From assembly GCA_965649295.1 (NCBI GenBank), contig CBFGKH010000003.1:96001-160000 (forward strand): DNA of 64,000 nt, read 5' to 3'. This DNA comes from a candidate division WOR-3 bacterium (GTDB taxonomy: Bacteria; Hydrothermota; Tepidihabitantia; Tepidihabitantales; Tepidihabitantaceae). Below the pieces are notes generated by a model that was not told the origin of the DNA, ran no database searches, and saw nothing but the letters and a program-made list of their open reading frames with translations. The translations under genes and the position numbers were made by a program. Positions 28,038 to 54,344 of the stretch are shown here, in pieces (position 1 is the stretch's first letter; each line of letters opens with the position of its first letter).

Positions 28038-29090
28038 CTACTTCTCCGCAAGACAGGACAGCAGGATGCTTACCGTTTCCCTGATGTCGATGTGGGCCGG
28101 GCACTCGCTAATGCAGCGACCACAGCCGACACACGAAACCTCGGCAATCATATCCACGGTGTATTTGAATTTATCCATCACTCGATTACGGTAGCGAGTC
28201 TCGGTCGCAGCCCGAGGGTTGTGGCCGGACGCGTGCTGCGTGTACTGACAGAACTGACAGGAGTCCCAGACGCGGATGCGAGCACCCCTGCCCTTGCGTT
28301 CTTCATCGGTAATGTCAAAACAATGGCAGGTTGGACAAAGAAACGTGCAGGCACCGCAGTTAACACAAGGCAAGCTGAGTTCCTCCCAGACCGGGTTGTC
28401 GAAGCCCGAGTCAAGGCGGCGCTTGAGGCCGGCAGTATCAATTGGCCGAGGCAATTGCTCAAGGCTCTTAGCCGCCAGCTCCTTTTTCTGTTCCAGGTCG
28501 CCGATTGCTGGGTCGGGCTGCGTGGCAATCAGTGCCACTCCCCTCTCAGTGATCGGCTCGGCCAGAAACCTGCCGCCAAGGTCGGTAAGCAGTAGGTCAA
28601 GACCACTGGTACCGAACGGCGAACCGCCGACTGCGGTACAGAAACAGGTCTCGGCTGGGGTGTTACAGGCAATGCCGACGAGCGTAGTTTTCTCACGTCG
28701 GCGCAGGTAGTATGAATCCGGTTGCCCCTGGCTGAAGAACTTGTCGAGCACGGCAATCGCGCGGGCATCGCAAGGCCGGACTCCGAGCACTATCTGTTCA
28801 TCTCCGGCCTTGGGTTCCATAGCTACAGCCGGATTGGTCGCTTCAAACCGAAGCATTACTTCCGACTGCGGAAAAAGCAGGGCTTTGGCACTAACCTTGG
28901 TGTTGACGCGGTCGAAGCAGGCCTCGGCCGCGGAGGTGATGCGGCGATACTCGGTCCAAGAAAGAAACTCTCTTGTCGGCTGACTTTTCAGGATGACACG
29001 CTGTGTCACCGGCGCGTAAACTGCGGCGTGTTTTGACCATTCGGCGACAAGCCGATCAAGCGCCTCAGCCGTGATGATACGCTCGGTCAT
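28038..29090 (-). CDS. 4Fe-4S dicluster protein (FlxB/AsrA-like)
   Basis: GVRPCD, CFCT, CVNCGACTFLCPTCHCF, WDSC, CVGCGRC...CP. Confidence 0.9.
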   Translation of the reverse strand: MTERIITAEALDRLVAEWSKHAAVYAPVTQRVILKSQPTREFLSWTEYRRITSAAEACFDRVNTKVSAKALLFPQSEVMLRFEATNPAVAMEPKAGDEQIVLGVRPCDARAIAVLDKFFSQGQPDSYYLRRREKTTLVGIACNTPAETCFCTAVGGSPFGTSGLDLLLTDLGGRFLAEPITERGVALIATQPDPAIGDLEQKKELAAKSLEQLPRPIDTAGLKRRLDSGFDNPVWEELSLPCVNCGACTFLCPTCHCFDITDEERKGRGARIRVWDSCQFCQYTQHASGHNPRAATETRYRNRVMDKFKYTVDMIAEVSCVGCGRCISECPAHIDIRETVSILLSCLAEK

Positions 29091-29101
29091 ACCGATTACC
29101 C

Positions 29102-29177
29102 TGTCATTCCGGGCACCGCGAGGAATCGCCGAATCAAACAGAGGCCATCCTTCGTCGCTGCGCTCCTGAGGATGACA
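29102..29177. repeat. REP-like palindromic element inside the flx-like operon
   Basis: TGTCATTCC...GAGGAATC ... ATCCTTCG...GAGGATGACA; same family as 3458-3827. Confidence 0.8.
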
Positions 29178-29184
29178 CTCCGTG

Positions 29185-30021
29185 TCACTTGATAAACTCC
29201 TGCTTGTCGTCCGGGCTGAATGCAGTCAGGGCCACGGGTTCATCCGGGTTCGTGCCAGCAACCGCCCCGAACCGGTCGCGGACAATTCTCGCTACCTTGC
29301 GGTTGAACTTCATCAGGTCAATACCCATTGGGCAGGCACGGGCGCACGCCCCGCACTCGACGCAGCGTCCAGCCATGTGCAAGGCCCGCATCAGGTGGAA
29401 TACCATGTTATCCGAAAGCTGCGGTGTCTTGCCGACCCACTGGGGTAAGTTCGAGTCAACAAAGCAGACCGGGCAATAGCAGTTCGGGCATACCTGACGA
29501 CAGGCATAACAGCGAATGCAGCGGCTCACGTCCTGCGACAACTGCTGCCAGCGTTCATCGGCCGAGAGCCGCTCGAACTCGGCAAGCCGGTCGGTCTCGG
29601 GCTCGTGCTCCGGCACCCGCTCACCAATCATCTCGTCGAAAATAACCGGGTTCGGATACCGACAGGTCGTGCAGGAATCGCTCAGACTCCCATTCTCCCG
29701 AATCCCCTCGCAGCCAACACCAAGAATCAAGAGCTGCTTCCGATCGAGCTGCCGTTCCTTGACAAGGCTGAGGATTGAACGCAAGTCGCAGCCCTTGGCG
29801 ATAACCGCGACCTTGCCGCGGTGTTTCACTTTCTGCAGATAGTTGGCAATGTTATGCCCGCAGCGGTCGTCAAAGATAAGGGTGTCAGCCTGCGCCGGCG
29901 TCGTAACAAAGGCAGGCTGGGCAACGCCCAGCGCTGTCTCGCGCCAACCGACAACCATCGCCACTGCCTGCTGTTCGAGCAGCTCACGGCAGCGCTTGCG
30001 CAGGGCCTCGGTGCGATTCAC
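29185..30021 (-). CDS. 4Fe-4S dicluster protein (FlxC / FdhB-like)
   Basis: KGCD.RS, RCIRCYACRQVCP.CYC..C, HMAGRCVECGACARACP. GTG 30021 overlaps the upstream stop (GTGA). Confidence 0.88.
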   Translation of the reverse strand: MNRTEALRKRCRELLEQQAVAMVVGWRETALGVAQPAFVTTPAQADTLIFDDRCGHNIANYLQKVKHRGKVAVIAKGCDLRSILSLVKERQLDRKQLLILGVGCEGIRENGSLSDSCTTCRYPNPVIFDEMIGERVPEHEPETDRLAEFERLSADERWQQLSQDVSRCIRCYACRQVCPNCYCPVCFVDSNLPQWVGKTPQLSDNMVFHLMRALHMAGRCVECGACARACPMGIDLMKFNRKVARIVRDRFGAVAGTNPDEPVALTAFSPDDKQEFIK

Positions 30022-30479
30022 TCGAACGGCTCCTTGACCATTCGCCGATTTGGGCCGAGCTGTCGAACGCGCTCGGTCACCTCCCGCACGACCGTGGCGA
30101 AGCGCTCGCCCTCGGCCGCCGAAACCCAAGAGAAACTCACCCGGCTTGGTTCAATACCGACAAACTCAAGCAAGTCGTGCAGCACTGCGAACCGCCGCCG
30201 CGCAACATAATTCCCGGTCAGGTAATGACAGTCACCCGGATGGCAGCCTGAGACCAGCACACCGTCTGCACCATTCTGGAGTGCCTTGAGGATGTAGAAC
30301 GGGTCAACGCGGCCCGAACAGGGAACACGGATGACCCGAATGCTGGCAGGGTACTGAATACGCGAGATGCCAGCTAGGTCAGCGCCAGCGTACGAACACC
30401 AGTTGCAAAGAAAAGCAACTATCTTCGGCTCGAAACCGGTCGTGCTGGGAGCTACTGGCTGAGGCTCGCTGGTGTTCAT
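30018..30479 (-). CDS. MvhD/FlxD hydrogenase iron-sulfur subunit
   Basis: FLCNWCSYAGAD, RVPCSGRV, GADGV...GCHPGDCHY..GN, WVSAAEG; all Cys codons, no UGA. Confidence 0.95.
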   Translation of the reverse strand: MNTSEPQPVAPSTTGFEPKIVAFLCNWCSYAGADLAGISRIQYPASIRVIRVPCSGRVDPFYILKALQNGADGVLVSGCHPGDCHYLTGNYVARRRFAVLHDLLEFVGIEPSRVSFSWVSAAEGERFATVVREVTERVRQLGPNRRMVKEPFE

Positions 30480-30545: not shown

Positions 30546-31298
30546 CTAGCGGACGATAACAGCCTTGGTTTTGCCGCCGTCCGGCCGAACCAGGAAATAA
30601 ACTCCAGTGCCGGCAGCCGCAGTCCGACGGCCGACGACGTCAAACAAGACAGAAGACGACAGATCCTGTCCGAAGCTTGCTTTTGCCCCGCGCTGCACCG
30701 TTAGGGTACGCTCCTCAGCAATACCGACCATGGTATAGAATATCCGCAACCGCGGCATATAGTTGCGGGGAGTGCCGGTCGGTGCGGTCGCGGTAGTTGC
30801 GTGTACTGCTCGGTTGCCGACCGTGTTGTAGCCATAGACATAGACCGAGTTGTTGTCATCACCCTGCCAACGGTATTCGATGATAAGATTCTCGATCCCG
30901 TTGTAGCTGAACGGATAGTCGAAAGCAAACCCGGCCCAGACATCAATCTGCCAGTCGATTCTCATCGTATCCGGTGGCACGGCGACTGCCGGCTCGCGAC
31001 CGGTGTAGTTGTCGGCAAATGTCGCTCCCAGCTCGGTAGCAGTGGTGTGACCAAGCCAGATACCTGAGTTGTAGAAGATGCCGTGATCGTAAACATCCGA
31101 GCCGCAGAGGAGCTGAATCGAGTCAATCCGGCAAGGGCCAGGCAGCTCGGTGGCAAGTACCAGAACCTGGTACCGTGTTCCGTTGTATCAGCCGCCGCAA
31201 TAGGGTACGTTGAGCAGCAGCGTGCCACCCGCCCCAAGCTCAACGAACTCAGCTGCAGCCGGCACGACGAGTAGTAGCAGAACCAGTGCGGTACGCAT
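30546..31298 (-). CDS. Putative secreted selenoprotein (250 aa; CxxU, U37) with T9SS-like C-terminal tail
   Basis: ATG 31298, signal peptide MRTALVLLLLVVPAAA, then ...VPYCGG-TGA(31190-31188)-YNGTRYQ..., open and in frame with track ORF 30546..30980; SECIS-like hairpin follows the TGA. Confidence 0.75.
31157..31173 (-). promoter_or_regulatory. Candidate bacterial SECIS element
   Basis: mRNA GUACCAG-GUU-CUGGUAC, a perfect 7-bp stem starting 14 nt after the UGA, with GU at the start of the loop. Confidence 0.7.
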
Positions 31299-31303
31299 AG
31301 TTC

Positions 31304-31373
31304 AGATTACTCCGCCGTCCGCGGTGGTCAAGATTGGTCGCAGTTTGACACCTACTCAGGCGTTCCCTATCAT
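31304..31373. promoter_or_regulatory. Back-to-back divergent sigma70-like promoters, both apparently leaderless
   Basis: Minus: TTGACC-N16-TAATCT, 5 nt before ATG 31298. Plus: TTGACA-N17-TATCAT, 5 nt before GTG 31379. Confidence 0.65.
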
Positions 31374-31378
31374 TCGGC

Positions 31379-32095
31379 GTGCCGCGCGGTCTTGTGATAA
31401 TGCCCACCTACAACGAAGCGGACAACGTCGAGCGCATCATCCCGGTCGTGCTCGCGCAGTCGCCCGAACTCGACGTGCTGGTCATTGACGACAATTCGCC
31501 GGATGGAACCGGTGAAATCGTTGAACGTATGGCCCGGTCCGAACCGCGCATCCATCTGCTGCGCCGGCCTGGCAAGCTGGGACTCGGCACCGCCTATGTC
31601 CTCGGATTCCGCTACACCATCGAGCACAACTACGACTACTGCTTCGAGATGGACTCCGACTTTTCCCATCCACCTGAGAAAATACCGGAGATGATTGCCC
31701 TGCTCAAAGACTACGACCTCGTCATCGGCTCTCGCTACTCCGACGGTATCTCGGTCGTCAACTGGCCGATGAAACGCCTGCTGCTTTCGTATTTCGCCTG
31801 CACCTATGCCCGAATTGTTACCGGTTGCCCGGTGCGCGACCTGACCGCTGGCTTCAAAGCCTACCGGACCGACATGCTGCGGAAGCTGAACCTCGACTCA
31901 CTCAAGGAAGATGGCTACGGCTTCCAGATTGAGATTGTCTTCCTCATCTGGCGCAAAGGTGGCCGCATCAAGGAAACTCCAATTGTCTTCACCGAACGCC
32001 GGGCTGGTGTTTCAAAGATGTCGAAGCGGATTATCCGGCGAGCGTTCTTCTTGGTACTGCGGCTACGACTGCAGCGCATCTTTAGCCACAGCTAG
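31379..32095 (+). CDS. Polyprenol monophosphomannose synthase (DPM1-like GT2)
   Basis: PTYNE, DDNSPDGT, GKLGLGTAY, EMDSDFSH, GSRY, DLTAGF, GYGFQIE, SKM. Confidence 0.92.
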   Translation: MPRGLVIMPTYNEADNVERIIPVVLAQSPELDVLVIDDNSPDGTGEIVERMARSEPRIHLLRRPGKLGLGTAYVLGFRYTIEHNYDYCFEMDSDFSHPPEKIPEMIALLKDYDLVIGSRYSDGISVVNWPMKRLLLSYFACTYARIVTGCPVRDLTAGFKAYRTDMLRKLNLDSLKEDGYGFQIEIVFLIWRKGGRIKETPIVFTERRAGVSKMSKRIIRRAFFLVLRLRLQRIFSHS

Positions 32096-33790: not shown

Positions 33791-33977
33791 GCGAGCTCAG
33801 CGAGCAGCCAACTCCCCGTCCTTATCTTAAGGTAGGTGGCAGGCAATCAGCCTGCCACATAAGTTGCCAAGAAGGGGAGTTGCTCTGCGAGCTCGCGAGC
33901 AGTCAACTCCCCAACCTCATCTCAAGACAGGTGGCAGGCAATAGGCCTGCCACATCAGATGCCGAGGAGGGGAGTTG
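33791..33977. repeat. Tandem duplication (about 95-bp period) containing the tRNA-Leu 3' end and a hairpin
   Basis: 33791-33882 and 33887-33977 align along their length; each has CAACTCCCC...GTGGCAGGC-N5-GCCTGCCAC...GGGGAGTTG. Confidence 0.9.
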
Positions 33978-34043
33978 AACCCCTATGGGCGTGAGCCCAC
34001 TAAGTCCTGAGCCTAGCGCGTCTGCCATTTCCGCCACCTCGGC
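33960..34043 (-). tRNA. tRNA-Leu (anticodon CAG)
   Basis: GCCGAGG acceptor stem, TGGCGGAAATGGCAGACGC D-arm, CTAGG-CTCAGGA-CTTAG anticodon arm, long variable arm, GGGGTTCAACTCCCC T-arm; CCA not encoded. Confidence 0.96.
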
Positions 34044-54270: not shown

Positions 54271-54344
54271 AGCGCCCGACGCGATTCGAACGCGTGGCCT
54301 GCAGATCCGGAGTCTGCCGCTCTATCCATCTGAGCTACGGGCGC
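54271..54344 (-). tRNA. tRNA-Arg (anticodon CCG)
   Basis: GCGCCCG acceptor stem, TAGCTCAGATGGATAGAGC D-arm, GCAGA-CTCCGGA-TCTGC anticodon arm, ACGCGTTCGAATCGCGT T-arm; CCA not encoded. Confidence 0.96.

Follow-up and report, generated by a model that had tools for sequence, protein, structure and literature searches.

A predicted selenoprotein family with a C-x-x-U motif in a lectin-like beta-sandwich, concealed by an in-frame TGA in candidate division WOR-3 bacteria

The window analysed here is a stretch of 64,000 nucleotides from a candidate division WOR-3 bacterium (GTDB phylum Hydrothermota; GenBank assembly GCA_965649295.1, contig CBFGKH010000003.1, positions 96,001 to 160,000), and positions given below are those of the window unless another contig is named. 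A minus-strand frame of 250 codons starts with ATG at 31298, ends with TAG at 30546-30548 and contains one in-frame stop only, the TGA of codon 37 (31190-31188; context P-Y-C-G-G-TGA-Y-N-G). The 3' portion of this frame corresponds to a 144-aa open reading frame (ORF; 30546-30980) in a mechanical ORF list. A preliminary description, made by a model from the sequence alone, had joined both segments into one protein of 250 aa continuing into that ORF; the same frame was obtained on re-reading the sequence, and the lone TGA in its C-G-G-stop context was found in the same column in all 17 loci examined, from 17 genomes, and in three additional lineages, far beyond what chance would give. Overall, the interpretation offered in that description was largely supported, and the refuting conditions it named, all of which were checked, were each passed or answered. 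UGA37 is very probably recoded as selenocysteine (Sec, U), in a process dependent on SelB and a selenocysteine insertion sequence (SECIS), to give a single 250-residue precursor. The following features were assigned:

30546..31298, minus strand: complete predicted selenoprotein gene, 250 codons plus TAG (frame reading; orthologues share the architecture)
31251..31298, minus strand: putative signal peptide, residues 1-16, MRTALVLLLLVVPAAA, with probable cleavage between AAA and EF (sequence inspection; helix 2-15 of the model)
31188..31199, minus strand: C-G-G-U motif, Cys34 to Sec37, with the predicted Sec codon TGA at 31188-31190 (conserved motif; PFCGxC in Cys forms)
31156..31174, minus strand: predicted SECIS hairpin GGUACCAG-GUU-CUGGUACU, codons R42-Y-Q-V-L-V-L48 (folding, covariation, codon constraint, published criteria)
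30723..31250, minus strand: predicted beta-sandwich (jelly-roll, lectin/CBM-like), residues 17-192 (AlphaFold2 model and fold matches; without a Pfam or NCBIfam model)
30549..30686, minus strand: shortened C-terminal tail, approximately residues 205-250 (aligns with the last strands of the relatives' type IX secretion system (T9SS) type A/FlgD-Ig sorting domain; pLDDT 73-82)

By inspection, the N-terminus has the features of a signal peptide of the Sec type (the export pathway, not the residue), namely M-R, a 12-residue hydrophobic run and then AAA before EF, and a signal-peptide-like N-terminus is conserved in the alignments of both orthologues and uninterrupted relatives. The C-terminus reads VLFDVVGRR...GVYFLVR...KAVIVR.

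A six-frame search in which stops were read through was carried out on 272 genomes of the window's phylum, 49 of which gave matches. Each of the 18 best places (E <= 7e-35; 17 genomes, two families) contained exactly one in-frame TGA, and the weaker matches listed had no in-frame stop, except for one TAA, one TAG and a 38-codon fragment. The TGA lies within N-[VRK]-P-[FY]-C-G-[GST]-U in all 17 loci fetched, C34, G35 and U37 being invariant (alignment A4), and in 14 of these 17 Sec-form loci a start codon 36-37 codons 5' of the TGA is followed by signal-peptide-like sequence. Close relatives with a sense codon at this position, which would have pointed to a private nonsense mutation, were absent, all 18 best places in the 17 genomes having retained the TGA. 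TGA is not a reassigned codon: six of the 17 Sec-form genes themselves terminate with it, as do 430 of 1149 long frames in the genome that contains the window. The chance that a sequencing or assembly error created the TGA is practically negligible, because the same codon recurs in 16 other independent genome assemblies and the three additional lineages, and a 96% identical protein from another assembly (P0002) is likewise called only from a downstream start. One genome (G185:C324:1294-1407, G185:C111:4208-4798) has two full Sec-form paralogues and, ~1.8 kb upstream of one of them, a detached N-terminal fragment of 38 codons that includes the signal peptide and CGGU.

The window protein can be aligned over its full length with 12 uninterrupted relatives of its phylum, the alignment taking in signal peptide, first strand (DTTEVIIG versus EFVELG), TGA column and C-terminal tail. 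The stretches on either side of the TGA thus belong to one domain of one polypeptide. At the TGA column, 13 TGA-free relatives carry Ser (11), Trp (one, encoded by TGG) or Thr (one), and the partner position (Cys34) is Trp. Reading the TGA as a true stop would leave either a 36-residue secreted peptide and a separate, internally started protein, or a pseudogene. This is how every public annotation treats the codon, and one copy (L023, G212:C81) does look degenerate, as it has kept the TGA with a broken hairpin and a frameshifted C-terminal half, probably through decay of the copy or faulty assembly. However, a true stop is difficult to reconcile with the conservation of one column in 17 genomes and three lineages with both flanks conserved at the protein level, or with the absence of other stops and frameshifts in 16 of the 17 genes. 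A product started downstream would have neither the signal peptide nor the first strands, which belong to a single chain in the uninterrupted relatives. In addition, the gene is spanned by contigs of related strains from two studies, whose runs are labelled as hot-spring metagenomes; identity is ~94-95%, with 52 and 63 substitutions and zero indels inside the gene. Termination at codon 37 is therefore regarded as very improbable.

In public databases, a protein search with the window protein gave 36 homologues (E down to 4e-84), one of which is labelled candidate division WOR-3. All of them begin after the TGA, at or beyond residue 45 and typically with "MPGPC", which is the pattern expected if a stop is present just upstream in every homologue. 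At NCBI, members appear as truncated entries with no selenoprotein flag, under names that include "hypothetical protein" and "T9SS type A sorting domain-containing protein". The expectation in the preliminary description that gene callers would truncate the protein is borne out by these 36 records, in all of which the reading of the Sec codon as a stop has removed the signal peptide and first strands; since all public homologues are affected, the annotation error is systematic.

The proposed SECIS hairpin starts 13 nt 3' of the TGA and has an 8-bp stem with a GUU (or GGUUC) loop, a UGA-to-loop spacing of 21 nt and a predicted energy of -10.0 kcal/mol in the window. The same hairpin at the same distance was found in 16 of 17 Sec-form sequences, including low-GC ones (L023 folds differently). 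Energies over the 17 Sec-form sub-windows ranged from -10.0 to -13.8 kcal/mol, whereas 13 TGA-free relatives gave -0.3 to -6.7 kcal/mol, without a conserved hairpin after the column. Pairing was possible in 91.5% of cells versus 20-48% in slid registers, and double changes were observed at three pairs (U-A to C-G in L021 and L022, C-G to U-A in L017, and A-U/C-G at the base); the covariation score was reached by none of 500 shuffles, which ignore relatedness. The SECIS element mentioned in the preliminary description is therefore present, conserved and covarying. Folding of the whole 81-nt stretch gave a z-score of only -1.33, and the hairpin signal emerged solely in the comparative analysis.

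Because the hairpin encodes the conserved peptide R-Y-Q-V-L-V-L, synonymous sites were tested. At the stem codon V47, 11 of 17 sequences have GUA, 4 have GUG and none has GUC or GUU, compared with genome-wide Val codon shares of 9.6% for GUA and 61% for GUC and GUU together, whereas the loop codon V45 varies freely, with all four Val codons used. In more divergent Sec lineages (described below) a hairpin is in place with other stems, GAUACCAG/CUGGUAUC in L050, ACCACC/GGUGGU in L052 and a bulged one in L049, with GG(U/A) in the loop of all three. The published model of bacterial SECIS elements includes a loop of 3-9 nt, a stem of 4-16 bp, G in the first two loop positions, a spacing of 16-37 nt and a minimum free energy <= -7.5 (PMC13188914), and the window hairpin lies within all four published criteria as given in that source. 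An A-GGUNC-U apex is common to the new gene and to a SECIS-like hairpin of a selD gene of its own genome (L003). Rfam models at the gathering threshold, run over the whole window, gave nothing at the hairpin and detected only two tRNAs. When the whole genome was scanned for in-frame TGA codons with an AGGUNCU apex on a perfect 5-bp stem behind them, only the new gene and one other site (C1:287730) were returned; the scan was too strict to recover selD and provided no genome-specific SECIS consensus. At this other site (C1:287730, minus strand), an in-frame TGA has an open frame on both sides and a GGGGCAGGUUCUGCUCC hairpin with the same apex 31 nt downstream, and it may represent a further unannotated selenoprotein.

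The machinery for Sec synthesis and insertion was found in the window's genome, including SelA, SelB, tRNA-SeC(tca) and two SelD genes, each with an in-frame TGA (C1:318451-319377, L003; C1:355394-356299, L004), the second of which lies directly beside selB (C1, ~356370). SelA was present in all 17 genomes with the TGA form, versus 135 of 272 phylum-wide. These results also bear on the possibility that the UGA is read through without Sec, by near-cognate insertion of Trp or Cys or under a local recoding signal. The hairpin could in principle stimulate generic read-through, and one TGA-free relative does have Trp (TGG) at the column; on the other hand, every component of the Sec pathway is present, TGA is an ordinary stop elsewhere, the hairpin fits the bacterial SECIS model, including G-G/U in the loop, and resembles the genome's own selD element, and the sister forms pair the column with Cys, in C-x-x-C. 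Such decoding thus appears to have little probability, and insertion of Sec is preferred.

More distant homologues were explored with a profile built from 16 full-length Sec forms, which was scored against 1.84 billion representative proteins. The search gave 815 proteins at E <= 1e-10, the best of which start at about profile position 52. Among the listed proteins, 417 domain hits were obtained, of which 94 cover the Sec column, where they carry Ser (15), Thr (13), Ala (11), Val (9), Tyr (8), Gly (8), Asn (7), Cys (3) and other residues in smaller counts. The Sec/Cys pair, PFCGxC, was found in three of the 94 covering domains (P0154, P0164, P0186), all from full-length proteins of 202-207 aa with signal peptides, one of them labelled Candidatus Fermentibacteraceae. 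Alignment of homologues at codon 37, proposed in the preliminary description as a check, thus gave a divided answer, as the TGA/Cys pairing exists in these three proteins and most distant homologues have Ser, Thr, Ala or other residues. The latter pattern suggests that Sec is a derived feature of one clade and not the replacement of a family-wide catalytic Cys.

A second scan covered all phyla, with one genome for each species, and yielded further Sec forms at three loci, labelled Coatesbacteria (L049, PFCGHU), PVC group (L050, PFCPGU) and Sabulitectum (L052, PFGCU). In the PVC-group metagenome-assembled genome, the Sec-form gene (L050:3-1097, minus strand), which encodes the N-terminal domain of a protein of >650 aa, is the immediate divergent neighbour of selA (Pfam SelA, E 2e-97). 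In a midpoint-rooted FastTree phylogeny of 52 domains, all Sec and Cys forms fell in one half of the tree, and the Cys forms clustered with the Sec form of L052 with a local support of 0.99. From these sequence comparisons, C-x-x-U/C-x-x-C appears to be a derived state within one branch of a larger family whose ancestral loop would be aromatic-x-x-Ser/Thr; no order of events is claimed, because the support is modest and the root is arbitrary. An additional residue, Cys65, marks one subfamily: all 16 WOR-3-type Sec forms have it, and it is missing from TGA-free forms, from Sec forms of other lineages and from Cys forms.

Structure prediction with AlphaFold2 from 28 sequences gave a confident model (mean pLDDT 86.8, >95 in the core) that was all-beta after the signal helix (residues 2-15), apart from one 4-residue helix (DSSP). 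This agrees with the preliminary description, in which the protein was considered beta-rich. The C-x-x-U motif is placed in a loop between the strands at residues 27-29 and 40-47. Fold matches with Z 10-11 over 145-164 residues were obtained to several jelly-roll beta-sandwich modules (Foldseek probability 1.0, TM ~0.4), including a phage tail-tip module (Z 11.3, root-mean-square deviation (rmsd) 7.2) and a phage baseplate module (Z 10.8, rmsd 3.5). The lectin-like domain of Cwp84 (4ci7) has the same fold (Z 10.7, rmsd 3.4, 146 aligned residues), and matches were also found to the N-terminal, carbohydrate-binding module (CBM)-like module of the acetylxylan esterase PbeAcXE (7tog, Z 10.5), to a PHR domain (3gbw, Z 10.0) and, at Z ~6, to CBM32-type modules. 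However, sequence identity to these lectin/CBM-like modules is 4-10%, none of them is a selenoprotein, and a shared fold is not proof of a shared ligand. Multi-domain relatives are large extracellular proteins, in which the domain is combined with CBM96, disaggregatase repeats, PKD, Big_5, cadherin-like, TSP3 and Kelch domains; these partners, CBM96 and adhesin-type domains among them, would fit a general role of the domain as a surface binding module.

With regard to export, the preliminary description of a T9SS-like tail held in part. The C-terminal sequence is as described, and the tails of relatives pass the T9SS type A model TIGR04183 (24.8 bits for L016 and 37.7 bits for L024; cut-off 23), but the tail of the window protein is shortened to a remnant of ~45 residues, aligned only with the last strands of the relatives' sorting domain, and stays below the model. 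The 2.28-Mb genome has 92 matches to T9SS type A sorting domains, which, together with two PorU-like genes, represent an unusually large predicted T9SS secretome for a genome of this size.

Several known systems resemble the new protein in one or more respects. One is the TGA-free sister family of the same phylum (single beta-sandwich domain plus T9SS type A tail; N-x-I-P-F-W-G-x-S), which has the same architecture and length, 23-31% identity over the whole chain, and the RxQVL, CHT, NY.GN.P and NL..E..W motifs, signal peptide and sorting tail in common with the window protein. It differs in having Trp at the position of Cys34 and Ser, Thr or Trp at that of Sec37, and in lacking both Cys65 and the hairpin. 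The sister family also occurs where SelA is missing, as in one family (f6) in which it is carried by 5 of 11 genomes and SelA by none of the 11. The Cys forms (P0154, P0164, P0186) have the same domain with P-F-C-G-x-C at the same site and a signal peptide (26-29% identity), but they have Cys in place of Sec, a short C-terminus (FGAxKxLLG) without a T9SS-type tail, and no Cys65. Among catalogued selenoproteins, those closest in concept are a TonB-dependent receptor of the FCYXU type and a selenoprotein with DUF1573, an Ig-like beta-sandwich domain. The DUF1573 selenoprotein (PF07610, UGC motif; Table 1 of PMC13188914) is likewise a non-thioredoxin domain, but the window protein has no match to PF07610 and has CxxU instead of UGC. 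The FCYXU-type receptor, as presented in the same source (PMC13188914), is also a non-thioredoxin selenoprotein of the cell envelope with F-C-x-x-U; it differs in being a TonB-dependent receptor with another export route, and the window protein and three of its Sec-form relatives have no NCBIfam match to it.

Taken together, a mechanism can be proposed in which SelB, carrying Sec-tRNA(Sec), would be brought in by the SECIS hairpin 13 nt beyond the UGA, and codon 37 would be read as Sec. To judge by sequence, model and relatives, export would then proceed through a Sec-type signal peptide with cleavage after Ala16, giving a mature protein that would consist of a lectin/CBM-like beta-sandwich of ~175 residues, and the short tail, presumably derived from a T9SS type A sorting domain, would probably target the protein to or across the outer membrane. 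The C-x-x-U loop would be the counterpart of the aromatic-x-x-Ser/Thr (PFWGxS) loop of the non-selenium relatives, and a surface binding module might thereby have become an extracellular thiol/selenol redox site through the Cys34/Sec37 pair. The most likely chemistry, suggested tentatively, is that Cys34 and Sec37 form a reversible selenylsulfide/selenol-thiol couple exposed on a binding-module scaffold, and Cys65 may assist in the WOR-3-type forms. A thioredoxin-fold oxidoreductase was ruled out by the all-beta model with CxxU in an inter-strand loop.

Alternatively, the C-x-x-U loop, with Cys65 in the WOR-3-type forms, could be a high-affinity site for soft metals or chalcogens at the cell surface and not a catalytic redox centre. 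Several selenoprotein families listed in Table 1 of PMC13188914 are metal-binding, the scaffold is a binding-module fold, and the related strains come from runs labelled hot-spring metagenomes. The invariance of Cys65 in the 16 WOR-3-type Sec forms and its absence from TGA-free forms point in the same direction; however, it is missing in the Sec forms of other lineages and in the Cys forms, so only two ligands are conserved, and metal-transport or resistance genes are not among the conserved neighbours. Such a binding site is a possible but rather less than probable explanation, and the redox couple is given somewhat more weight.

A number of observations weigh against the overall interpretation or parts of it. 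The hairpin lies in the conserved RYQVLVL, so its conservation is partly at the protein level, and L023 has kept the TGA without it. Co-occurrence with SelA says little within family f1, in which SelA is found in 41 of 43 genomes. No RNA run was listed among the runs for the related strains. Cys is missing at the Sec column in 91 of the 94 covering domains, mostly in favour of Ser, Thr, Ala, Val or other residues, and hence there is no family-wide catalytic Cys from which a redox function could be argued; the exclusion of the thioredoxin fold also counts against the redox part. Local support for the Sec/Cys clade is only 0.74, and four members inside it carry neither Sec nor Cys. As for secretion, the tail of the window protein has no match to the T9SS type A models (TIGR04183/PF18962) and is not among the genome's 92 matches, and the two full-length PorU-like matches (369 and 340 bits) are below the curated cut-off of 420.

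The preliminary description could not assign the protein to any known selenoprotein family, and the same result was obtained here. The window protein matched no Pfam and no NCBIfam family, and its relatives match only T9SS/FlgD tail models. A 2026 review lists 119 prokaryotic selenoprotein families and subfamilies (PMC13188914, Table 1), and no entry of that table corresponds to the window protein, families without a model having been compared by table entry only. No secreted or T9SS selenoprotein family was found by term searches within PMC12013277, PMC13326102 and PMC13188914, and a WOR-3 or type IX-secreted selenoprotein was not found in the literature covered (PMC/bioRxiv collection only, with the supplementary family list of BSepDB outside the comparison). 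On the sequence evidence, these genes appear to constitute a genuine, previously uncatalogued selenoprotein family that is systematically mis-annotated. It combines a non-thioredoxin, lectin-like fold and predicted export with very few Cys homologues (3 of 94), and these properties help to account for its having gone unreported by methods that depend on Sec/Cys pairs.

The family may serve as a case study of the origin of Sec, as the same loop within one domain family occurs as W-x-x-S, C-x-x-C and C-x-x-U, and the SECIS element appears to have been made out of codons for a conserved peptide (RxQVL) that was already present. More speculatively, it might be the first selenoprotein family displayed on the surface or released through a T9SS-type route, in which Sec arose in a CBM-like ligand-binding loop (W-x-x-S to C-x-x-U) rather than as an upgrade of a catalytic Cys, creating an extracellular redox or chalcogen/metal-capture site in uncultivated WOR-3-, Coatesbacteria- and Fermentibacteria-type bacteria; this scenario as a whole is possible, with the balance somewhat against it. 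If the extracellular location is true, selenium biochemistry would extend to the cell surface of bacteria with related strains in hot-spring-labelled runs.

Downstream on the same strand, an MvhD/FlpD gene is located at 30018-30479 (PF02662, E 1e-56; Cys, not Sec), followed by two genes for ferredoxin-like 4Fe-4S proteins (29185-30129 and 28038-29090, minus strand). The region 28038-30479 (minus strand) resembles an Hdr/Mvh-like electron-transfer cluster and is separated from the selenoprotein gene by a sigma-70-like site at 30527-30499. No conserved operon partner was found among 37 flanking ORFs from 15 loci, and the MvhD/Fer4 genes are common only to the nearest genus. On these grounds, and in view of the intervening promoter-like site, a functional link to Hdr/Mvh was rejected.

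The ATG had also been described as promoter-adjacent, which the sigma-70 scan did not support, as no minus-strand promoter-like site was detected upstream of ATG 31298. The scan returned two sites, the minus-strand one at 30527-30499, downstream of the selenoprotein gene, and a plus-strand one at 31345-31373; the earlier impression was probably due to the latter, a strong site facing the other way. The two tRNA genes detected by Rfam are at 33960-34043 and 54271-54344, both on the minus strand. The strong plus-strand site precedes a divergent family-2 glycosyltransferase gene at 31379-32095 (plus strand; PF00535, E 2e-31).

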